From: Bacteroidales bacterium
GTDB taxonomy: Bacteria > Bacteroidota > Bacteroidia > Bacteroidales > NBLH01
Assembly: GCA_029210905.1 (NCBI GenBank)
Contig: JARGGF010000001.1
Location: forward strand, 1 to 29,571
Reading direction: 5' to 3'
DNA: 29,571 nucleotides
Below the pieces are notes generated by a model. The model was not told where the DNA came from. It saw nothing but the letters and a program-made list of their open reading frames with translations, and searched no databases. Both the position numbers and the translations under genes were made by a program. Position 1 is the first letter of the stretch, and each line of letters starts with the position of its first letter. Below, in pieces: positions 18,714-29,571 of this stretch.

Positions 18714-18944
18714 ATGAACAACTTGGTTAATAATCAACATGATACAAACAGGAGGAATTTCATAAAATCAATCATTAGGAACTTTTTACTTCTTGGACTT
18801 GCTTTTACCAGTATATTCCTGGTTTTCAAAGAAGATGATGGCGAAGAATGTAACTTTGATTTTGTATGCAGATCATGTAAAAAATCAAAAGGCTGTTCGC
18901 TCCCTGAAGCAAAAAATTATCGTTCAAATAAATTAAGGGTATAG
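18714..18944 (+). CDS. Small membrane-anchored Cys4 protein with twin-Arg-like motif
   Basis: NRRNFIK, a TM segment (FLLLGLAFTSIFLVF), then C-x5-C-x2-C-x5-C (CNFDFVCRSCKKSKGC). First gene of the operon; 3 nt gap to the next ATG. Confidence 0.72.
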   Translation: MNNLVNNQHDTNRRNFIKSIIRNFLLLGLAFTSIFLVFKEDDGEECNFDFVCRSCKKSKGCSLPEAKNYRSNKLRV

Positions 18945-18947
18945 GTT

Positions 18948-19523
18948 ATGGACGAAAATGTTAAGAGGATCGATCGTCGTGATTTTATCAACAGTGCCCT
19001 TCGCATTTCTGTTGGTATTGCAGTAGGAAGCATTGGTGGTGTTTTGCTTGCCAGAACCTCAAAAGACGATATGGTCTGGCAGCTTGATCCGGCTAAATGC
19101 GTACAATGTGGAAGGTGTGCAACCAGCTGTGTTTTAACACCTTCGGCAGTAAAATGTGTGCATGTATACAACATGTGTGGTTATTGCGATTTATGTGGTG
19201 GCTACTTCAGGCCCGAAGCTAAAAATTTAACCACAGCAGCTGAAAACCAACTTTGTCCAACAGCAGCCATAGAACGAAAATATATCGAAGACCCATTTTT
19301 TGAATACCACATTAATGAGGATTTGTGCATTGGATGCGGCAAATGTGTTGAAGGCTGTGGTTCGTTCGGAAACGGTTCCATGCAATTACAGGTTCGCCAT
19401 GATTTGTGCGTTAACTGCAACCAGTGTGCTATCGCAAGGGATTGTCCTGCTGATGCATTTAGCAGGGTATCAAGAGAAAGCCCTTATATTTTCAAAGGAT
19501 TTAGTACGGATGAAACTACATAA
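18948..19523 (+). CDS. Membrane-anchored polyferredoxin (about four [4Fe-4S]) with twin-Arg-like N-terminus
   Basis: DRRDFIN plus a hydrophobic helix; CVQCGRCATSC, CGYCDLC...LCP, CIGCGKCVEGC and CVNCNQCAIARDCP (17 Cys). Confidence 0.88.
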   Translation: MDENVKRIDRRDFINSALRISVGIAVGSIGGVLLARTSKDDMVWQLDPAKCVQCGRCATSCVLTPSAVKCVHVYNMCGYCDLCGGYFRPEAKNLTTAAENQLCPTAAIERKYIEDPFFEYHINEDLCIGCGKCVEGCGSFGNGSMQLQVRHDLCVNCNQCAIARDCPADAFSRVSRESPYIFKGFSTDETT

Positions 19524-19599: not shown

Positions 19600-20871
19600 A
19601 TGAACAGCAACAAAATAAAAATAATTGTTTTATTTATCCTCCTTGGAATTCAAACTGTTGCTATCTCGGGTCCCCGTTTCCCAATGCCCGAATTTGAGTC
19701 GGGGCATACACAGCCACCTACGCTCCAACCTGAACCAAGGTCAGACTTTTTCGAAATTTTTGATGCTTTTGTGCTGATTGCCGCATTGACAGTTATAACC
19801 TGGCTCATTCATAAAAAACGCTCAAGAAGAGGTGTTTTTTGGGTTTCAATTTTCTCCCTTCTTTATTTTGGATTTATTCGCGAAGGGTGTATTTGTTCTA
19901 TTGGGGCTATACAAAATATTACGCTTGCATTGTTCAACCCCTCTTATCAAATACCTGCTACTGTTATCGCTTTTTTTGTTATCCCATTGATTTACACCTT
20001 GTTCTATGGAAGAACCTTTTGCGCGGGAGTTTGTCCTTTGGGTGCTATCCAGGATATTTTTGCTTTGCAACCAGTAGATTTAAAAACCTGGGTACAAAAA
20101 ATCTTAGGCCTTATCCCTTTCATTTATCTGGGACTGGCTATTTTATATGCTGCCACCAGTACTGATTTTATTATTTGCCGGTACGACCCATTTGTGGGTA
20201 TTTTCAGGCTTGATGCTACCTTCTTTATGTTTAGCATTGGAGCACTTTTTATTATCACCTCAGTTTTTATTGCAAGGCCTTATTGTCGGTTTTTCTGCCC
20301 TTATGGTGTTCTTCTTAACTTAATTAGCAGGGTTTCTAAAAAACATGTTGAAATAACGCCCACGCATTGCATTAATTGCAGGTTATGTGAAAATTCTTGT
20401 CCATTTGGAGCCATTGAAAAACCAGTTCCGGTTAAAGAGATTGGGAATAAAAATACCGCCTTACGAAAATTCATGACCCTAAGTTTCATTATCCCACTTT
20501 TAATATTTATTGGAGGCTGGACCGGATCTCAGTTTCACGAAAACCTGGCCATGGTAAATGCCGATGTAAGACTGGCAAATGAAATATTAACCACTGATTT
20601 ACAGGATAAAACAATAGAGTTTTCAGAAGAAATAAAAGCTTTCAAAAGCTCCGGTAAAACTGCTGATGAAATTTATGCAAAAGCCAACGAAATTTTAGAT
20701 GATTTTTACATAGGTGGCTGGATACTAGGTGGATTTATTGGGCTGGTATTCGGAATAACCCTTGCAAGTGTTTCAATATTCAGATACAGAGAAGATTATA
20801 AAACAAATAAGGGAGAATGTTTCAGTTGTGCCAGGTGCTTTGATTATTGTCCGGTAAAGGTTGAAAGTTAA
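19600..20871 (+). CDS. NapH/MauN/NosR-C-like polytopic membrane Fe-S protein
   Basis: True start is the ATG at 19600; the track extension overlaps the upstream gene. CICSIGAIQ, FCAGVCPLG, YCRFFCPYG, CINCRLCENSCP and C-terminal CFSCARCFDYCP; multiple TMs. Confidence 0.88.
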   Translation: MNSNKIKIIVLFILLGIQTVAISGPRFPMPEFESGHTQPPTLQPEPRSDFFEIFDAFVLIAALTVITWLIHKKRSRRGVFWVSIFSLLYFGFIREGCICSIGAIQNITLALFNPSYQIPATVIAFFVIPLIYTLFYGRTFCAGVCPLGAIQDIFALQPVDLKTWVQKILGLIPFIYLGLAILYAATSTDFIICRYDPFVGIFRLDATFFMFSIGALFIITSVFIARPYCRFFCPYGVLLNLISRVSKKHVEITPTHCINCRLCENSCPFGAIEKPVPVKEIGNKNTALRKFMTLSFIIPLLIFIGGWTGSQFHENLAMVNADVRLANEILTTDLQDKTIEFSEEIKAFKSSGKTADEIYAKANEILDDFYIGGWILGGFIGLVFGITLASVSIFRYREDYKTNKGECFSCARCFDYCPVKVES

Positions 20872-20975: not shown

Positions 20976-22820
20976 ATGAAAATGCAGGAAAATAACCATA
21001 AAAAAGTAAACGTCCGGTTATGGAAAAGAATCGTGCTTATCGCAGCTGTTTTTTCCCTCTTAACCGCTTTATTGCTCATTGCCAATTACATACAACTAAA
21101 TAGGGCAGATCCGGTTAACACTAAAACCATCAATATGCTGGTGGAACGTCTCAATCAAAACCCTGATGATGATGCACTTAGGAATGAAATCAGGGAACTG
21201 GATTTATTGGCCCGTAAAGCATATTTTACCAATCAATGGCAAATAAGAACAGGTGCTTATCTTTTATTAATTGGAATAATTGTAGTGGTGGTGGCGCTGC
21301 AAATTATAAAATCAGCAAAGGGTATTGAACCTGAGATTCCTGCTGAAAAAGGTCTGGATTTTCTTTCAAATCAGGTAATTACCAGAAAATGGGTATCTAT
21401 TAGTGGTATTTCTTTGGTTGGAATTGCTCTTCTTTTTGCTTTTTTAACACATAACAAACTGGGTAATGCGATAACACAGGCATCTACCAGTACCCAGACT
21501 GACACTATCTCAAGCAAGCTAGCTGTAAACAGTAATAATACTATAGAAACCAGCACAATGGTTTCTGATTCTATGACTACTAGTGAAGTAGCTGAAAATC
21601 AAGATACTGCCACAAACGAAAATGATGTAGATACTACAACCAAAGTGTTATCTGAATATCCAACATATAAAGAAATTATACAGAATTTTCCTTGCTTTAG
21701 AGGTCCTGGAGGTAATGGAATTGCATATCAGAAAAATGTTCCTACCAGTTGGGATGGCGCTTCAGGTGCAAACATAAAATGGAAGTTTGCAGTTCCGCTT
21801 CCTGGTTTTAATTCACCTGTGGTTTGGGAAGACAAAGTATTTATTTCAGGAGCAAATGCAACAACAAGAGAGGTTTATTGTATTGATAGAAATACTGGTA
21901 AATTATTATGGAAGGCACCAGTTGTAAATGTACCTGGTTCTCCTGGGACTTCCCCCAAAGTTACAGACGATACCGGACATGCTGCCCCAACTTTGGCTGT
22001 TGATGGACGCAGGGTTTATGCGATTTTTTCAAACGGTGATATTATTGCCCTTGATATGGACGGGAACAAAGTCTGGGCCAGGAACCTGGGAACACCATCT
22101 AATCATTATGGACATTCATCTTCGCTGATGTTATTTAATAATATGGTTATCATACAATACGACCAAAAAAACTCACCAAAGGTGATGGCTTTATCAACAA
22201 CTACCGGAAAAACTATCTGGAGTACCGCCCGTGAAGTAAAAATTTCATGGGCATCACCAGTAATTGTATATACTGGCCAACAAACTGAAATCATCTTATC
22301 TTCAGATCCTTACGTGGCATCTTACAATCCATGGTCGGGTAAGGAAAACTGGCGCATCGACTGTATTTTTGGTGAGGTAGGCCCTTCAGTGGCTTATGCC
22401 GATGGCCTTGTGTTCGCTCAGAATGAGTATGCCAGATTGGTAGCCATTAAAATTGGCGAAAAACCAGAAATTTTGTGGGAGTCTGACGAATATTTATCTG
22501 ACGTTCCCAGCCCGGTTGCTACTAAAGATTATTTATTTTCAGCAACCAGCTATGGTGTAGTAGTTTGTTACGAAGCCAAAACATGCAAAAAATTATGGGA
22601 ACAAGAGTTCGGAAATGGTTTCTATTCATCGCCAATGATGGTAGGTGGAAGAATATATCTGTTTGATAGAAAAGGAGTTGCACATATTTTCTCGGCCAGC
22701 GGAACTTATAAAAGTCTTGGTGAACCAAAATTGGGTGAAGATGTGGTAAGCACCCCTGCTTTTGCTGATGGGCAATTGTTTATCAGGGGGTCGAAGAATT
22801 TATATTGTATTGGAAAATAA
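20976..22820 (+). CDS. Three-TM membrane protein with C-terminal BamB/PQQ-like beta-propeller
   Basis: Start refined to the ATG at 20976 (or 20982). Three hydrophobic helices, a Ser/Thr-rich linker, FPCFRGPGGNG, then repeated W-containing blades (IKWK, LLWK, KVWAR, TIWS, ENWR, ILWE, KLWE). Confidence 0.88.
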   Translation: MKMQENNHKKVNVRLWKRIVLIAAVFSLLTALLLIANYIQLNRADPVNTKTINMLVERLNQNPDDDALRNEIRELDLLARKAYFTNQWQIRTGAYLLLIGIIVVVVALQIIKSAKGIEPEIPAEKGLDFLSNQVITRKWVSISGISLVGIALLFAFLTHNKLGNAITQASTSTQTDTISSKLAVNSNNTIETSTMVSDSMTTSEVAENQDTATNENDVDTTTKVLSEYPTYKEIIQNFPCFRGPGGNGIAYQKNVPTSWDGASGANIKWKFAVPLPGFNSPVVWEDKVFISGANATTREVYCIDRNTGKLLWKAPVVNVPGSPGTSPKVTDDTGHAAPTLAVDGRRVYAIFSNGDIIALDMDGNKVWARNLGTPSNHYGHSSSLMLFNNMVIIQYDQKNSPKVMALSTTTGKTIWSTAREVKISWASPVIVYTGQQTEIILSSDPYVASYNPWSGKENWRIDCIFGEVGPSVAYADGLVFAQNEYARLVAIKIGEKPEILWESDEYLSDVPSPVATKDYLFSATSYGVVVCYEAKTCKKLWEQEFGNGFYSSPMMVGGRIYLFDRKGVAHIFSASGTYKSLGEPKLGEDVVSTPAFADGQLFIRGSKNLYCIGK

Positions 22821-22910: not shown

Positions 22911-25259
22911 ATGAACGAATCAATCATAAATACCGTTGACCAAATAATAGCTGAAAAAGGGATAACTTCAAATGCGGTTATCCCTATTCTTCAGGCTATC
23001 CAGGAAAAATTTAATTATTTGCCCGAAGATGCCCTGAAAAGAGTGTGTGAAAATACAGACATCACTCAATCACAAATTACTGGGATATCAACTTTTTATT
23101 CACAATTCAGGCATAAGCCTGTAGGTGAGCATATTATAAAGGTTTGTGTTGGGACTGCCTGTCATGTAAAAGGTGCTTTACAGGTTTACGATTCATTCAA
23201 AAGAACGCTAAAACTTAAAGACAAAGAAGATACAGATAAGAACGGACTTTATACCATTGAAAAAGTAGCTTGCCTGGGCTGCTGCACCATTGCCCCTGTG
23301 GTTCAGATAGATAACATTACTTATGGCAATGTTGAAACAGAAAAAGTACCTGAAATACTTGACGACTTTATCTTAGCGAAAAATAATACAGAAACAAGTA
23401 TTGTTAAAACCTACCAAAATAACAGCCTGGTTCAGGGTGAAATAAGGGTAGGCCTGGGCTCCTGCTGTGTGGCAAGCGGAAGTGCCGATGTTAAAAACGA
23501 ATTAGAGAAAACATTGGCTAACAATAAGATACATGTGGATGTGAAACATGTTGGCTGTGTGGGAGTTTGCAATCAGGTGCCATTGCTGGAAATTCACAAA
23601 CCCAACATGGAACCTGTCTACTATGCCAAAATTAAGCCCGATGAAGTAAAACAAATTATCCAAACGCATTTTAGGGCAAACCGACTGATTGATCGTCTAA
23701 AAAATCAATTCTTTTTGTTTTTCGAAAACATGCTGGTGGAAAACCTTCCGCAAACTGTGAAAAGATATGCTTCAGATCATCGTGATACACCAATTGCAGA
23801 ATTCCTGAACGGACAGATTTCCATTGCCACCGAACATCGAGGCCAATTAAAACCATCTGATATTGAGGAGTATAAAAAAAAGGGAGGTTTCAATTCATTT
23901 CTAAAATGTATTAAAGAATATTCACAGGATCAGTTAATCGAAATCATCCGACAAAGTGGTTTAAAAGGCCGTGGAGGAGGAGGATTCCCTTCAGCAATAA
24001 AATGGCAGATGGTTAAAGATGCCAAAGCTGAAAAAAAATACATCATTTGCAATGGTGATGAAGGTGATCCGGGTGCATTTATGGATAGAATGTTGCTTGA
24101 ATCCTATCCCTATAGAGTAATAGAAGGGATGCTGATTGCGGCTTATGCAGTGGGGGCACAGGAAGGTATTTTCTACATCAGGGCTGAGTATCCACTTGCT
24201 GTTCAGCGAATTAATGAAGCTTTAGCAATATGCAGGCAAGAAAATTACCTTGGTAAAAATATTCAGGGAACTGATTTTTCAATCAATTTTAAAATATTCG
24301 AAGGTGCGGGTGCCTTTGTTTGTGGTGAAGAAACCGCATTGATTGCTTCTATTGAAGGAAAAAGAGGTTTGCCTTCCATGCGCCCACCCTACCCTGCTGA
24401 AAGTGGTTTGTGGGATGGGCCTACTTTAATAAATAATACAGAAACATTGGCGCTGGTTCCATGGATAGTAAGAAACGGCGCAGAAGCCTTCAATCAAATA
24501 GGAACTAAAAACAGCACGGGTACTAAAGTTTTTGCACTGGCAGGCAAAGTAAAACGGGGAGGGCTTATAGAAGTACCTATGGGGACAACGATACATCAGG
24601 TAATTGAAGAAATAGGTGGTGGCATTGCCAACGATAAACAATTTAAAGCAGTACAAATTGGCGGACCATCAGGAGGTTGTATCCCTGCCTCATTATCAGC
24701 CACTCCAATCGACTATGAATCGCTGGAAAAATTAGGAGCCATGATGGGTTCTGGCGGACTCATTGTTTTGGACGAAACAGATTGTATGGTTGATATTGCT
24801 AAGTATTTTCTGTCCTTTACCCAGGACCAAAGCTGTGGAAAATGCACTTTCTGCAGAATTGGGACTAAACGTATGCTTGAAATACTTGAAAAAATTACCA
24901 GAGGGCAAGGTGTTTTGAAAGATCTGGAAATACTTGAGCAATTAGCCGAAAGCACAAAAAAAGGAAGTATCTGCGGATTGGGAAGAACTGCTCCAAATCC
25001 AATTTTATCGACACTCCACTATTTTAGAGAGGAATATTTAGCACATATTAATGGCACTTGCCCTTCAGGAAAATGCACTGAATTAATCACATACAGTATT
25101 ACAGATGATTGCATCGGCTGTACCATTTGTGCGCAAAAATGCCCCTCGGATGCCATACCACTGAATCCTTATAAAAAGCATGAAATTATTAATGATAAAT
25201 GCATTAAGTGTGATGTTTGCAGGCAGGTTTGTCCGGAAAAAGCTGTATTAGTAAAATAA
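22911..25259 (+). CDS. NuoE-NuoF (HydC-HydB / BfuC-BfuB) fusion: NADH/FMN-binding Fe-S flavoprotein
   Basis: Start at the ATG at 22911. NuoE part CVGTACHVKG...ACLGCC; second thioredoxin-like domain GLGSCC...GCVGVC; GLKGRGGGGFP, CNGDEGDPGAFMDR, GAFVCGEETAL, GGPSGG, SCGKCTFCRIG...SICGLG, HINGTCPSGKC; C-terminal CIGCTICAQKCP and CIKCDVCRQVCP. Confidence 0.93.
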   Translation: MNESIINTVDQIIAEKGITSNAVIPILQAIQEKFNYLPEDALKRVCENTDITQSQITGISTFYSQFRHKPVGEHIIKVCVGTACHVKGALQVYDSFKRTLKLKDKEDTDKNGLYTIEKVACLGCCTIAPVVQIDNITYGNVETEKVPEILDDFILAKNNTETSIVKTYQNNSLVQGEIRVGLGSCCVASGSADVKNELEKTLANNKIHVDVKHVGCVGVCNQVPLLEIHKPNMEPVYYAKIKPDEVKQIIQTHFRANRLIDRLKNQFFLFFENMLVENLPQTVKRYASDHRDTPIAEFLNGQISIATEHRGQLKPSDIEEYKKKGGFNSFLKCIKEYSQDQLIEIIRQSGLKGRGGGGFPSAIKWQMVKDAKAEKKYIICNGDEGDPGAFMDRMLLESYPYRVIEGMLIAAYAVGAQEGIFYIRAEYPLAVQRINEALAICRQENYLGKNIQGTDFSINFKIFEGAGAFVCGEETALIASIEGKRGLPSMRPPYPAESGLWDGPTLINNTETLALVPWIVRNGAEAFNQIGTKNSTGTKVFALAGKVKRGGLIEVPMGTTIHQVIEEIGGGIANDKQFKAVQIGGPSGGCIPASLSATPIDYESLEKLGAMMGSGGLIVLDETDCMVDIAKYFLSFTQDQSCGKCTFCRIGTKRMLEILEKITRGQGVLKDLEILEQLAESTKKGSICGLGRTAPNPILSTLHYFREEYLAHINGTCPSGKCTELITYSITDDCIGCTICAQKCPSDAIPLNPYKKHEIINDKCIKCDVCRQVCPEKAVLVK

Positions 25260-25279
25260 CCATAACGAAAACTTATATT

Positions 25280-26614
25280 ATGAGTTTTGAAATTGATAAT
25301 CAGACACTAAGAGATTTAAATATATTTCCAAATAAGAAGAAAGAACAATCCATTTTTGACTTATTCAAACAAACCAAAACAGTAGGTGGGCAAAATACAC
25401 TTATTCGTTTAATGAAAAATCCGCTGAACAATTTTGAACAACTTTCAGAAAGAGTTGAGGCCATCCGATATTTTCAAGACAATAATATTGCTTTTCATTT
25501 TATTGACAGAAACCTTGAATTTATTGAACATTACCTTAACTTAAACATGCCTGTGCTTCGAAAAGGGTGGATTTTTGCCCTATCCGATTGGTTAAGTGAT
25601 GTTATTTTACCTACAAATGAATATTTTGCAATTAAACGTGGCTTAAAGTTCTTACAGCAATTTTTACTTCAATTAAAGATTTATATTGAGAGTATTCAGC
25701 TTACGGAATATCCTGAATATTTTAATAGCGTCATAAATGAATTTAACTTGCTTAATACTAGCGATCTATTTAAATCTTTTTTAGCTCTCTCAGATAAAAA
25801 AATCAATCGCTTAAAATCAGTAAATAGCTTTGATAATTTAATACGTAAAAAGTCAAAAGACGATCTTCTAAAATTAATAAGCAAAATATACGAAATTGAT
25901 TCATTGAGAACTGTTGCTCTGGTATCGAAAGAAAACAATTATTGTCTGCCTGATTATACTCAAAACAACTCTTCATTATTGAATATCGACAACTTATTCC
26001 ATCCATTTGTTAATGAGCCAATTACTAATAGTTTTTCTTTCAATGAGCAAACAAATATGTGCTTTTTGACAGGTGCAAATATGGCTGGAAAATCAACCTT
26101 CTTAAAATCAGTCGGTTTGTGCTGTTACTTGGCACATTTAGGATTTCCTGTACCTGCAAGCAAAATGGAAACCAGCATTTATAGTGGTTTAATTACTGCT
26201 ATAAATCTATCAGATGATGTTACCAAAGGTTATAGTCATTTTTATTCTGAAGTAAAAAGAGTTAAGAATACAGCAATAAGTATTAAAGAAAAAAAGAAGA
26301 TCCTGGTTATTTTCGATGAACTGTTTAGAGGAACTAATGTAAAAGACGCCTATGATGCTTCATTAATGATAACTGCAGCATTTGCAAAAATTAAACACTG
26401 TGCATTTTTTATTTCGACCCATATAGTGGAAATTGCTGAGGAATTAAAAAATGAAGACAATATCATTTTCAAATATTTTGAATCGGAAGTGGTTAACGAA
26501 ATCCCCGTCTATAGTTACAAGTTAGCAAATGGAGTTTCTGCAGACAGGCATGGGCTGAGAATAGTTAAAAATGAAAAAATAGTTGAAATACTTGAGGGAA
26601 TAATTAATGAATAA
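25280..26614 (+). CDS. MutS-related ATPase (domain III remnant plus domain V only; no mismatch-binding domain)
   Basis: Start refined to the ATG at 25280. DNQTLRDLNIF, Walker A LTGANMAGKSTF, SHFYSEVKRV, Walker B IFDELFRGTN, FISTH. Confidence 0.88.
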   Translation: MSFEIDNQTLRDLNIFPNKKKEQSIFDLFKQTKTVGGQNTLIRLMKNPLNNFEQLSERVEAIRYFQDNNIAFHFIDRNLEFIEHYLNLNMPVLRKGWIFALSDWLSDVILPTNEYFAIKRGLKFLQQFLLQLKIYIESIQLTEYPEYFNSVINEFNLLNTSDLFKSFLALSDKKINRLKSVNSFDNLIRKKSKDDLLKLISKIYEIDSLRTVALVSKENNYCLPDYTQNNSSLLNIDNLFHPFVNEPITNSFSFNEQTNMCFLTGANMAGKSTFLKSVGLCCYLAHLGFPVPASKMETSIYSGLITAINLSDDVTKGYSHFYSEVKRVKNTAISIKEKKKILVIFDELFRGTNVKDAYDASLMITAAFAKIKHCAFFISTHIVEIAEELKNEDNIIFKYFESEVVNEIPVYSYKLANGVSADRHGLRIVKNEKIVEILEGIINE

Positions 26615-26679
26615 CAAATTTTACTTACCAATAAAGCGGATGCATATTAAGAATGAGATAGTTACAATGACAATTATTG

Positions 26680-26920: not shown

Positions 26921-28486
26921 ATGATAAAACTCAAAATTAATAATATAGAAACACAGGTTGAAAATGGAACCTCCGTTCTAAAGGCCGCTGAACAAGCAGG
27001 TTTTAAAATACCTTCCATGTGCTTTAAAGAAGGTTATTCCAATCACCCTTCATGCATGGTGTGCATGGTAAAGGACAATAAAAATGGTAAGCTTTTCCCT
27101 TCCTGTGCCATTGCAGCAACCGAAGGTATGGATATTATTACTGATGATGATGAAGTAAAACAATCAAGAAAGGAAGCACTTGAGCTGTTGCTGAGCGACC
27201 ATGTGGGTGATTGCGAAGCTCCTTGCCAGCCATCATGTCCGGCCAACATGAATATTCCATTGATGAACCGCCTGATTGCCGAAGGAAAATTTGCCGAATC
27301 GCTAAAAGTAGTAAAAGAAGCTATTGCCCTTCCGCTAATTTTGGGCTACATCTGCCCTGCGCCATGCGAAAAGGCTTGTCGTCGCGGACAGATAGATAGC
27401 CCCGTTTCTATTTGTATATTAAAGAAATACGTGGCCGTGGAGGATCTCAAAAACGAAACATTTTACCTGCCCGAAAAACAAAAAAAATCAAATAAAAAAG
27501 TAGCCATCATCGGTTCAGGTCCGGGCGGATTGTCAGCTGCTTTTTATTTATTAAAACTAGGCCACGATTGTGTTATTTTCGATAAAAATGAAAAAGCCGG
27601 AGGAACCCTTCGCTACGAAATTCTTGAAAACCAATTGCCAAACGAGGCTATTGATAAAGAAGTGGAAGTGCTTATAAAATATGGAGCTAAATTTCAATTT
27701 AATACCAACATTACCAAAGAAATTTTTGAAAATGAGATAAGAAAAAATTTCGATGCAATTATTTTAGCTACAGGAAATTACGAAGGTTCAGTTATTGAAA
27801 ATTTTGGTTTTGAAAGTGGTAAATCGGGCATCAATATCAATAAAGATACCTACGAAACCAGTATTCCCGGAATATTTGCCTGTGGAAATATTATCCGTTC
27901 CAGGCGAATGGCCATAAACTCTGTGGCGCAGGGTAAAATTGCAGCTGAATCGGCTCATGCATTTTTGAATGGACAAACACCTGAAGCTAAACATCGTATG
28001 TTCAACTCAAAATTTGCCAAACTTCTTGAAGAAGAGTTTGAGGAATATTTGAAAGAATCAATACCTGAAAACAGGGTTGAACTAGAAAATGGCAAAATGG
28101 GCGATTTTTCAATGGAAGAAGCCATGTTGGAAGCCAAACGCTGCCTGCATTGCGACTGCCGCAAAATTGATAATTGCAAATTGCGCATTTTCTCAGATGA
28201 ATACAGCGCAGATAGAAAAAAATTCGATTTTGGTGAACGAAAAATCATCAAAAAATATGATCAGCATGAATTAGTAATTTACGAATCGGAAAAATGCATC
28301 AGGTGCAATTTATGCGTTGATATCACTATGAAAAACAGTGAGTTAACAGGTTTGTCAAGCATTGGCAGGGGATTCACAGTTGAAATAAATATACCATTTA
28401 ATCAATTATTGAGTGCCGCATTAACTAAAACAGCCATTGATTGTGTTGAATCGTGCCCGACGGGGGCGTTGGCTTTTAAAAAATAG
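26921..28486 (+). CDS. HydA/NuoG-N-terminal Fe-S protein with an inserted, internally truncated GltD/NfnL-like FAD domain (BfuA-like)
   Basis: Start at the ATG at 26921. [2Fe-2S] CFKE...SCMVC...SCA; LLLSDHVGDCEAPC; CPANMNIP...GYICPAPCEKACRR; KVAIIGSGPGGLSAA; TSIPGIFACG; EAKRCLHCDC...CKLR; KCIRCNLC; CVESCPTGAL. Confidence 0.9.
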   Translation: MIKLKINNIETQVENGTSVLKAAEQAGFKIPSMCFKEGYSNHPSCMVCMVKDNKNGKLFPSCAIAATEGMDIITDDDEVKQSRKEALELLLSDHVGDCEAPCQPSCPANMNIPLMNRLIAEGKFAESLKVVKEAIALPLILGYICPAPCEKACRRGQIDSPVSICILKKYVAVEDLKNETFYLPEKQKKSNKKVAIIGSGPGGLSAAFYLLKLGHDCVIFDKNEKAGGTLRYEILENQLPNEAIDKEVEVLIKYGAKFQFNTNITKEIFENEIRKNFDAIILATGNYEGSVIENFGFESGKSGININKDTYETSIPGIFACGNIIRSRRMAINSVAQGKIAAESAHAFLNGQTPEAKHRMFNSKFAKLLEEEFEEYLKESIPENRVELENGKMGDFSMEEAMLEAKRCLHCDCRKIDNCKLRIFSDEYSADRKKFDFGERKIIKKYDQHELVIYESEKCIRCNLCVDITMKNSELTGLSSIGRGFTVEINIPFNQLLSAALTKTAIDCVESCPTGALAFKK

Positions 28487-28532
28487 GACACTGATTTTTA
28501 AGATTATTATTATTTAATATGATACAATCAGC

Positions 28533-28626
28533 CTTTGTGAAAAACTTTGTGAAACATTGTGTTACAATAATAAATTCATAAATAGGAGCACAAAGTCCCT
28601 CAAAGGAATCACAAAGTTCCACCATG
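28533..28626. repeat. Variant inverted array CTTTGTG / CACAAAG
   Basis: ctttgtg 28533 and 28545, cattgtg 28555; spacer; cacaaag 28589, ctcaaag 28599, cacaaag 28610, caccatg 28620. Confidence 0.7.
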
Positions 28627-28639
28627 AAATAAATTAAGA

Positions 28640-29571
28640 ATGAAAAAGATACTTGCACTGTTATTTCTAATCTTTCCTTTAATTTCAAAAGCCCAAAGTT
28701 CCACCTGCTGGCCATCCTTTAGGGGTAATTCAGCAATGACTGGCACAACTAACATTAAATTATCCAACTCGCCAGAACTGCTTTGGTCTTTTAAAACAGG
28801 TGATGGAATTAAATCATCGCCAATTTATTGCAATAAAAATATATTTATTGGTTCAAACGATGGATTTGTTTATTCGATTTCATCAAAGGGAAAGTTAAAC
28901 TGGAAATATAAAACAACAGCTTCTATAGAAGCCGCTCCACTTTATCTTAATCATATTCTTTATGTCAGTTCACTTGAAGGTATTTTATATTCCATTGATG
29001 CCTTATCCGGCAAATTAAAATGGAAATATGCTACTGAAGGTCAGATTTCAGGCTCTTCAACCTGGGTATTTTCGCCAGATAAAAAAAGTAAATACGTTCT
29101 TACTGGCAGCTACGATTATTTTTTGCATGCAGTAGACATGAATACAGGAAAAGCAGTCTGGAAGTATGAAGCTGACAATTACATCAATGGAGCACCCTGT
29201 ACCAATGGAAAAGTAGCACTTTTTGGTGGCTGCGATGGCTATCTGCATATTGTTGATGTTCAGACAGGTAAGGCAGAAAAACTGGATATTGGAACCTATA
29301 TAGCTTCTTCTGCGGCAATCAGCGACAGCCTGTGTTTTTTTGGCAATTACGATGGTGATTTTTATTGTGCAGATTTTGCGAACAAAAAAATCATATGGAA
29401 ACATACAGGATCAGGTCCGTTTTTAGCTTCTCCTGCGGTGTTTGGAAATAAAGTAATTATTGGTTCACAGGACAAAACCATATATTGTTTTAATAAGACA
29501 GATGGAAAAGTATTGTGGAAGTTTAAAACCCTGGGTAAAGTCGATGGATCCGCAATAATATCAGGAGATAA
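28640..29571 (+). CDS. Secreted BamB/PQQ-like beta-propeller protein (partial, runs off the right edge; absent from the ORF track)
   Basis: Hand translation: MKKILALLFLIFPLISKAQSSTCWPSFRGNSAMTG...LLWSFKTGDGIKSSP...LNWKYKT...LKWKYATEG...GSYDYFLHAVD...AVWKYEADNYINGAP...FGGCDGYLHIVD...; no stop before 29571. Confidence 0.9.
   Translation, partial: MKKILALLFLIFPLISKAQSSTCWPSFRGNSAMTGTTNIKLSNSPELLWSFKTGDGIKSSPIYCNKNIFIGSNDGFVYSISSKGKLNWKYKTTASIEAAPLYLNHILYVSSLEGILYSIDALSGKLKWKYATEGQISGSSTWVFSPDKKSKYVLTGSYDYFLHAVDMNTGKAVWKYEADNYINGAPCTNGKVALFGGCDGYLHIVDVQTGKAEKLDIGTYIASSAAISDSLCFFGNYDGDFYCADFANKKIIWKHTGSGPFLASPAVFGNKVIIGSQDKTIYCFNKTDGKVLWKFKTLGKVDGSAIISGD

Follow-up and report, generated by a model that had tools for sequence, protein, structure and literature searches.

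What can a flavoprotein subunit of a bifurcating-type enzyme still do once the domain that binds its pyridine nucleotide has gone? The question is raised by a gene at 26921..28486 of the 29,571-nucleotide stretch analysed here (the window; contig JARGGF010000001.1 of the Bacteroidales bacterium assembly GCA_029210905.1), which, like every feature located below, lies on the + strand. Its open reading frame (ORF), Pfam domains, solved relatives and AlphaFold model identify the 521-residue product as a short iron-sulfur flavoprotein of the NfnA/StnC-like, BfuA type, and the translation contains neither stop codons nor frameshifts. The original prediction had described a BfuA/GltD-like subunit deprived of its NAD(P)H-binding Rossmann domain and pointed to an electron partner different from that of Nfn-type enzymes. 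Bfu enzymes (HydABC, NfnABC and relatives) form a large electron-bifurcating family, for many clades of which the third substrate is unassigned (PMC9304861). We consider that the product is probably the large, BfuA-type subunit of a flavoenzyme in the Bfu family (HydABC/NfnABC-like); derived from NfnA/StnC, it would serve as an electron wire, independent of reduced nicotinamide adenine dinucleotide phosphate (NADPH), that joins a Bfu core to a membrane relay.

Relatives of known structure were sought with HMMER against the chains of the Protein Data Bank, and the AlphaFold model, built on 117 short homologs, was compared using Foldseek and VIA-align. The large subunits of Caldicellulosiruptor saccharolyticus (Csac) NfnABC (9bov_A, E 2.5e-94), Sporomusa ovata StnABC (8oh5_C, E 3e-89) and Thermococcus sibiricus NfnABC (9n5u_A, E 6e-85) were each matched in two pieces, with the NADPH domain skipped in between. 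On 9bov_A, query residues 2-292 aligned with chain residues 4-293, and query residues 277-518 with chain residues 426-672; the chain residues left without counterpart were ~132 that form the NADPH Rossmann domain and the last ~500, which form a domain like formate dehydrogenase (Fdh) and NuoG. The query segment carrying the ATG motif was aligned twice, once with the ATG motif of the domain that binds flavin adenine dinucleotide (FAD) and once with the equivalent motif that ends the NADPH domain, so one whole Rossmann unit would, in effect, have been cut out between two homologous motifs.

The model is compact and confident, with a mean predicted local distance difference test score (pLDDT) of 96.3, a predicted template modelling score (pTM) of 0.92 and no segment below a pLDDT of 70. 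Foldseek gave template modelling scores, normalised by the query, of 0.82-0.86 against the three large subunits, and VIA-align superposed model residues 1-521 on residues 3-675 of 9bov_A with 510 residues aligned (of 673 in range) and a Z score of 39.2. The protein thus ends at the equivalent of residue 675 of a chain of 1178. The middle of the model (98-351) superposes on NfnI-L (5jfc_L, chain residues 48-472) over 252 residues with a root-mean-square deviation (rmsd) of 1.6 Å, and its two ends together superpose on the N-terminal module of complex I NuoG over ~204 residues with an rmsd of 2.0 Å. The architecture is therefore that of a NuoG-type three-cluster module with an inserted GltD-type Fe-S/FAD module, as in NfnA and StnC, minus the NADPH domain. 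Compared with the NfnABC and StnABC large subunits, the NADPH Rossmann domain, the second ferredoxin cluster and the entire Fdh-like C-terminal domain have been lost. Alignment to NfnABC-type relatives and structure prediction both bear out the claimed deletion, 17 residues replacing ~132 of 9bov_A, and the ~500-residue Fdh-like part has no counterpart.

The modules can be followed along the gene. At 26921..27145 lies an N-terminal [2Fe-2S] domain resembling that of NuoG cluster N1b (Pfam Fer2_4 on residues 1-75, E 3.5e-12), with ligands C34, C45, C48 and C62. It is followed at 27200..27451 by a GltD/NfnL-type Fe-S domain (Fer4_20 on residues 97-177, E 2e-15) for the two [4Fe-4S] clusters A6 and A7, with H94, C98, C102, C106, C145, C149, C153 and K168 at the ligand positions. 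The first part of the FAD-binding Rossmann domain, recognised by motif conservation, occupies 27497..27775 and falls within a partial Pyr_redox_2 match (residues 187-338). It comprises the GSGPGG motif that had been noted before (residues 198-203, nucleotides 27512-27529), D221, G227-G228 and R231, and extends up to the ATG motif (residues 283-285) that closes FDAIILATG (residues 277-285, nucleotides 27749-27775). The deletion junction (27776..27826), defined by junction lengths and by the split HMMER alignments to 9bov_A and 8oh5_C, spans residues 286-302, which makes the earlier count of about 17 residues exact. Past it, at residue 303, the GININ segment begins, and the return strands and last helix of the FAD domain (27827..27970, aligning from chain residue 426 of 9bov_A) carry G322-N323 (nucleotides 27884-27889) at the position of the GD motif. 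Farther on, C408-x2-C411-x-C413-x5-C419 (28142..28177) aligns with the same motif in 9bov_A and 8oh5_C and supplies the [4Fe-4S] ligands assigned to A3, in a NuoG N5-like position. The final ferredoxin-like domain (28295..28459) was matched by Fer4_Nqo3 on residues 451-517 (E 1.2e-5) at 25.8 bits, slightly under the 27-bit cut-off. It reads C459-x2-C462-x2-C465-x3-T469, then C508-x3-C512-P513, so that its first cluster (A2) keeps C459, C462, C465 and C512, while C508 is the sole cysteine left of the second, A4. The chain terminates 8 residues past the CP motif, in agreement with the earlier remark that it stops right after CPTGAL.

Whether these positions are maintained was assessed on 136 short representatives, on an alignment of 117 short forms and on 12 long forms. 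The [2Fe-2S] ligands C34, C45, C48 and C62 are invariant in the 117 aligned short forms and are found in 133-134 of the 136, the remainder being gaps. H94, C98, C102, C106, C145, C149 and C153 are invariant or nearly so across the 136, as are C459, C462, C465 and C512-P513, and C408, C411, C413 and C419 occur in all 136 short and all 12 long forms. Among the FAD motifs, the glycines of GxGxxG (G198, G200 and G203) do not vary in the short forms, D/E221 is found in 132/136, G227-G228 in 132-133/136, G322 in 120/136 and R231 in 102/136; for D/E221, G227-G228 and R231, the conservation holds down to 34% identity. Since the motif residues are conserved, the flavin domain is evidently under selection despite the loss of the NADPH domain. 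The ligand positions of A4 behave differently: residue 469 is alanine, threonine or serine and never cysteine, and C508 is present in only 102/136. One ferredoxin cluster with four cysteines was what the original prediction had seen, and this holds; what it had called erosion is better described as loss of A4. A single-cluster C-terminal domain is common to the short forms and to ~650-residue relatives that keep the NADPH domain. The junction at 286-302 is gappy and variable in length across the family.

The positions kept can be read against published work on the relatives. By HMMER alignment, C106, C145, C149 and K168 correspond to C108, C147, C151 and K170 of Csac NfnA, which are ligands of A7, the flavin-proximal cluster (PMC11829005); K170 was reported to be needed for Stn activity (PMC10482914). 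R231 aligns with StnC R239, which is located near the flavin N5 (PMC10482914). In NfnABC, the electron path was given as FAD-A7-A6-A3-A2-A1 and from there to B1-FMN-C1, where FMN is flavin mononucleotide, and the A4/A5 branch within the Fdh-like domain was regarded by the NfnABC authors as a dead end and a probable non-functional remnant (PMC11829005). The short protein retains the ligands for one [2Fe-2S] and four [4Fe-4S] clusters in addition to the FAD motifs; from the alignments and the ligand count, we infer that the clusters kept are A1, A2, A3, A6 and A7. The retained parts would correspond to the published NfnA electron path, and the lost parts to the NADPH site and the dead-end A4/A5 branch, of which A5 belongs to an Fdh-like domain devoid of pterin.

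To place the short form within its family, two sets of homologs were used, namely the 120 closest clusters at 90% identity and the 151 representatives at 50% identity from an exhaustive search. The former (57-98% identical to the query) consist of full-length proteins of ~520 residues or of shorter fragments, none of which could accommodate an NADPH domain. In the latter, the junction measures at most 39 residues in 139 representatives (34-57% identical) and 130-162 residues in the other 12. In a FastTree phylogeny rooted on four NfnA/StnC-like proteins of ~1225 residues from genomes of the same order, in which the deep order is provisional, 134 short forms make up one clade with 99% local support; the ~650-residue forms constitute a basal grade, within which three short stragglers fall. 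Independent metagenome contigs that span the gene and the junction show many substitutions and no internal indel. The short form is not the product of decay or an assembly artefact, a concern raised alongside the original prediction in case close homologs had retained the domain, and the loss of the NADPH domain is clean and ancient.

The likely order of events begins with loss of the Fdh-like domain and the A4 ligands, placed first because all ingroup proteins, the long forms included, share both losses; one main deletion of the NADPH domain is then likely to have followed. In the long relatives, the NADPH glycine motif (GxGxxA) is degenerate in several and canonical (GGGNTA...YRRT) in others. 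The neighbourhood of long forms is represented by a single genome (G098), whose long form has a canonical NADPH motif and lies outside the NapGH-like operon described below; it is uninformative as evidence on past use of NADPH by that operon. The contigs of P0184, P0215 and P0127 end before any upstream genes would be reached. The short junction has its own variants. In P0135 it is even shorter, at 14 residues. A 649-residue frame in genome G445 (L019:9149-10981) was considered as a long-form intermediate and rejected, since the extra part is a low-complexity, charged linker of ~75 residues at the place of the NADPH domain; this variant has valine for C508 and sits in the same operon. In P0127 (1133 residues, from a metagenome contig), the short form is joined to a further GltD-like module, itself complete, with Fer4_20, a full Pyr_redox_2 including the NAD(P)H domain and a Fer4 dicluster.

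The genes around the short subunit suggest what it may be connected to. Upstream, at 22911..25259, Pfam finds a NuoE-like [2Fe-2S] domain (BfuC) fused to a HydB/NfnB-like protein, giving a BfuC-BfuB (NuoE-NuoF type) core of 782 residues. The BfuB part comprises a second thioredoxin-like domain, a site for FMN and nicotinamide adenine dinucleotide (NAD), a [4Fe-4S] cluster and a C-terminal pair of [4Fe-4S] clusters, and the best solved relative of the fused core is Csac NfnB (9bov_B, E 4e-206). Farther upstream, a membrane Fe-S protein of the NapH/MauN type (19600..20871), assigned from Pfam Fer4_5, a NCBIfam napH_ match under its cut-off and synteny, contains two CxxxCP and two CxxCxxCxxxCP motifs along with several segments that are hydrophobic in a hydrophobicity scan. 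A NapG/MauM-like polyferredoxin (18948..19523; Fer4 families of Pfam and hydrophobicity scan) has a twin-arginine motif and one hydrophobic helix. It is preceded by a protein of 76 residues (18714..18944) with an RRxF motif and four cysteines, recognised in translation, for which a small ORF is found at the same place in loci L001-L003; both this protein and the NapG-like one begin with an RRxF motif and one hydrophobic helix. The set is completed by two beta-propellers: one of the PQQ_2/BamB-like kind with N-terminal membrane helices (3TM-propeller; 20976..22820, Pfam and synteny), and one with a signal peptide (28640..29571, Pfam) that runs off the window and that in most loci lies downstream of the short gene.

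Synteny was examined in 80 loci from named genomes, all with the short form, counts being limited to loci with enough flanking sequence. In 68 of 73 loci, the fused BfuC-BfuB gene immediately precedes the short gene on the same strand, often with a gap of ~10 nucleotides or less, and the NapG-like, NapH-like, membrane-anchored propeller and core genes are all upstream in 53 of 58. Downstream, the signal-peptide propeller usually comes first, followed by genes for a GT4 glycosyltransferase, an ABC ATPase and an FtsX-type permease of very large size. Most carriers belong to the Bacteroidales/Marinilabiliales (Prolixibacteraceae, Draconibacterium, Mariniphaga, Lentimicrobiaceae), and further ones are metagenome-assembled genomes (MAGs) labelled Planctomycetota, Latescibacterota, Aminicenantes, KSB1, Poribacteria and Victivallales. 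The NapGH-like/3TM-propeller synteny itself extends over at least six phyla, with examples in Bacteroidota and in MAGs of Planctomycetota, Latescibacterota, Aminicenantes, KSB1 and Victivallales. The distribution is patchy within the phylum and common among relatives and in metagenomes: of 400 genomes sampled evenly across the phylum, none contained a short form at E <= 1e-80. Within the genus of the window, 5 of 11 congeners have the short gene. In one of these (G402) all parts of the system are adjacent, and in four congeners that lack it (90-99% complete) there is no NapH-like match and the NuoF relatives are of the HydB type only. The system behaves as an accessory unit within this genus.

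As a proposed mechanism, the electron wire is well supported by homology. The A1 [2Fe-2S] end would dock on the fused, FMN-containing BfuC-BfuB core in the way NfnA docks on NfnBC, and the cluster chain would run from A1 to the FAD, by analogy with NfnABC and StnABC. Because the NADPH domain is missing, the protein is predicted to be unable to act as an NADPH:NAD/ferredoxin transhydrogenase, and NADPH would not be the third substrate. Electrons would pass between the NADH/ferredoxin core and a third partner other than a pyridine nucleotide. Judging by synteny only, the most likely partner is the NapH-like membrane protein encoded alongside, met on its cytoplasmic Fe-S side; as in NapH, its Fe-S motifs are expected to point into the cytoplasm. 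The NapH-like protein could in turn connect to the NapG-like ferredoxin, of the twin-arginine translocation type, and this to the exported beta-propellers. Contact with the relay may be made at the flavin face opened by the missing domain or at the adjoining cluster A7. The conserved operon with NapG- and NapH-like proteins fits the different electron partner that had been anticipated. A complex prediction for the short subunit and the NapH-like protein, run without controls, scored 0.00 and speaks neither for nor against binding. More tentatively, and with less confidence than we place in the wire itself, we suggest a new functional class of Bfu enzymes in which a NapH/NapG-like transmembrane Fe-S relay takes the place of the third "substrate"; cytoplasmic oxidation (or reduction) of NADH and ferredoxin might then be coupled to redox chemistry on exported beta-propellers through the former NADPH flavin, now a contact for a protein or a quinone.

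Several observations weigh against the proposed NADPH-independent wire to the membrane. The short gene of three Prolixibacteraceae-type genomes lies away from both the core and the NapGH-like genes, and the fused core is found elsewhere in the genome. The partner has been named from synteny alone. Bound FAD is likewise deduced from motifs only, and among these the aspartate of the GD motif is not maintained: the reading of GD as GN in this protein is correct, and residue 323 proves variable family-wide (S30/D21/G21/N20 of 136). At position 168, the place of the lysine ligand, the short forms have K69/E25/H20, hence lysine in about half. True bifurcation would not be needed if the third partner had a high redox potential. 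Finally, the P0127 fusion suggests that an NAD(P)H site could be supplied separately in some lineages.

In one alternative, which we regard as unlikely, the open flavin has no protein partner and instead acts on a small molecule, either soluble or in the membrane (for example a quinone, oxygen, peroxide, a sulfur compound or free flavin), and the NapGH-like module is served by another part of the complex. Removal of the NADPH domain from the GltD/NfnL fold should indeed, from the known fold and the alignment, expose the nicotinamide-side face of the isoalloxazine, the strictly kept FAD motifs are expected if flavin chemistry is still needed, and quinones and peroxide were among the third substrates that Schut et al. 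(2022) proposed for Bfu enzymes (PMC9304861). However, the junction that would line such a site varies in length and sequence, up to the variant with the 75-residue low-complexity linker, no conserved new pocket-forming residues were found for it, and the tight synteny with the NapGH-like genes would be left unexplained. Rather less probable still is that the FAD domain survives as a structural relic, its flavin absent or redox-silent, with electrons travelling via A7 or A6. The unconserved GD-motif aspartate, the 14-residue junction of P0135 and the degenerate GxGxxA motifs of several ~650-residue relatives, which suggest that nucleotide handling was already under relaxed selection, all point in that direction; yet invariant G198, G200 and G203, together with D/E221, G227-G228 and R231 kept to 34% identity, are hard to explain without a bound dinucleotide.

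It is very improbable that NAD(P)H is still the third substrate and is handled in trans by a separate GltD-like flavoprotein docking on the short subunit. The P0127 fusion would favour such an arrangement, as would a GltD-like ORF of 1004 residues on another contig of the window genome (C536), but this fusion is the only one of its kind among the 151 representatives, and no GltD-like gene belongs to the conserved operon across the 80 loci. As for decay of the copy, a deletion confined to the strain or an error of assembly, the window does come from a fragmented MAG (1231 contigs, 83% complete) with an unrelated MutS-like gene inside the operon; against this, the same architecture recurs in hundreds of clusters, the frame is intact, independent assemblies agree, the model is confident and the ligands are invariant, so this explanation has been refuted and retains a negligible probability.

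The MutS-like gene (25280..26614; Pfam MutS_V and MutS_III) lies between the core and the short subunit and is missing from all 92 related loci compared. In two sequencing runs, contigs from related strains jump from 25246 to 26667 and from 25237 to 26666, with a few different letters at the join, and a third run has the gene. Because some contigs skip it and others carry it, the gene (region 25217-26667) is a strain-variable insertion, which replaces the last codons of the core gene and stands outside the system. Downstream of the short gene, at 28532-28545, related strains either carry 10 additional bases (CTTTGTGAAA or CTTTGCGAAA) or lack 12 bases; this variation falls in an array of CTTTGTG heptamers, the copy number of which varies between strains. 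The stretch was not found in any RNA run.

In the three displaced loci (L071:4210-9604, L092:4837-9804 and L094:4443-9876), the core is not ahead of the short gene. Pfam identifies a HemN-like radical SAM protein and a HemY-like amine oxidase upstream in L071 and L094, with a ferrochelatase in L071 and a URO-D protein in L094; the ORF sizes in L092 are the same as in these two. One further short form (P0157) is extended at its C terminus by a URO-D-like part. This one lineage and one fusion make a link to tetrapyrroles possible. In P0135 (L110:1305-3908), the short subunit reads through into a hydrophobic, signal-like segment and then the downstream propeller; if this fusion is real, it would anchor the cytoplasmic flavoprotein in the membrane and leave the propeller outside. 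Elsewhere in the window genome, on contigs C338, C352 and C397, a NuoF-like gene of the HydB type adjoins a gene for an [FeFe]-hydrogenase large subunit, and these pairs at three loci indicate that the organism has classical HydABC-type Bfu enzymes too.

The short subfamily amounts to a natural experiment in which the NADPH site and the dead-end branch have gone while the published electron path has been kept under strong selection, and it suggests a third partner that can be tested, namely a membrane and periplasmic Fe-S relay. The conserved cluster of short subunit, core, NapGH-like proteins and propellers probably connects the short subunit with redox proteins of the membrane and periplasm, and it occurs in anaerobes of several phyla that live in sediments, bioreactors and groundwater. 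It is undescribed in the literature found: papers on Bfu/GltD, Stn/Nfn and NapH-like/NuoEF/propeller systems yielded no description of the short form or its operon, and no such Bacteroidetes enzyme is listed in the supplement of Schut et al. At least one carrier, the Draconibacterium sp. IB214405 record, is not a MAG and may allow genetics and biochemistry. Databases currently carry the short forms under misleading names such as "NADPH-dependent glutamate synthase beta subunit-like" and "NAD(P)-binding protein".

Among known systems, the N-terminal halves of NfnL/NfnB, GltD and DPD (5jfc_L, 4ylf_B, 2vdc_G and 1h7w) share the Fe-S and FAD domains, which superpose over ~250-260 residues with rmsd values of 1.6-2.5 Å; in those proteins, however, the NADPH domain is inserted in the FAD domain, and there is no NuoG-type module toward a NuoF-like core. 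The N-terminal module of NuoG/Nqo3 has in common the [2Fe-2S] domain and the C-terminal, one-cluster ferredoxin-like part, but the short protein has a GltD-like flavin module inserted in the middle and has neither the pterin-like domain nor the membrane arm of complex I. Nearest in sequence is the PRK12814 type (~650 residues; NCBIfam NF009454, "putative NADPH-dependent glutamate synthase small subunit"), which presents the same N- and C-terminal modules and single-cluster ferredoxin domain, also without an Fdh-like domain, and differs in a second Rossmann domain of 130-162 residues. The PRK12814 profile scored 415 bits (query 2-298 on profile 4-300) against a cut-off of 916, and the GltD profile TIGR01317 159 bits against 448; with both scores under the cut-offs and no second Rossmann domain, the protein is not a member of GltD.

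The closest likeness is to NfnA (9bov/9bp5) and to StnC, the 1172-residue large subunit of StnABC (8oh5), with which are shared the [2Fe-2S] domain, the GltD/NfnL-type Fe-S domain with the lysine-ligand position, the FAD Rossmann domain, the CxxCxCx5C cluster and the first ferredoxin-type cluster. Identity to NfnA is ~35% over the 510 structurally aligned residues, and the partner core is most like NfnB. In contrast to NfnA and StnC, the short protein is devoid of the NADPH Rossmann domain (~132 residues), the A4 ligands and the ~500-residue Fdh/NuoG-like domain with A5; unlike in NfnABC and StnABC, BfuC and BfuB form one chain, and the enzyme genes do not stand alone but share an operon with NapGH-like and propeller genes. 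The NfnA of Thermococcus sibiricus (9n5u/9n5v; Z 37, 509 residues aligned) has the same N-terminal modules and is also without the A4 cluster (PMC9304861), but it retains the NADPH and C-terminal domains and is a proven NADPH-dependent bifurcating transhydrogenase. By sequence and fold, the features of an Nfn-Bfu large subunit that are present are the [2Fe-2S] domain, the two-cluster GltD/NfnL-type domain with lysine, the FAD Rossmann fold and the co-encoded BfuB/BfuC core, and those absent are the NADPH Rossmann domain (GxGxxA/G, YRR) and the Fdh/NuoG-like domain with A4 and A5. With these two defining features missing, the protein should not be filed as an Nfn-type transhydrogenase subunit. 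Schut et al. (2022) counted Bacteroidetes among their Nfn-associated BfuB sequences and 17 clades without an assigned function (PMC9304861), and in their sense of the Bfu family, both the core and a BfuA-like wire are present in this locus.

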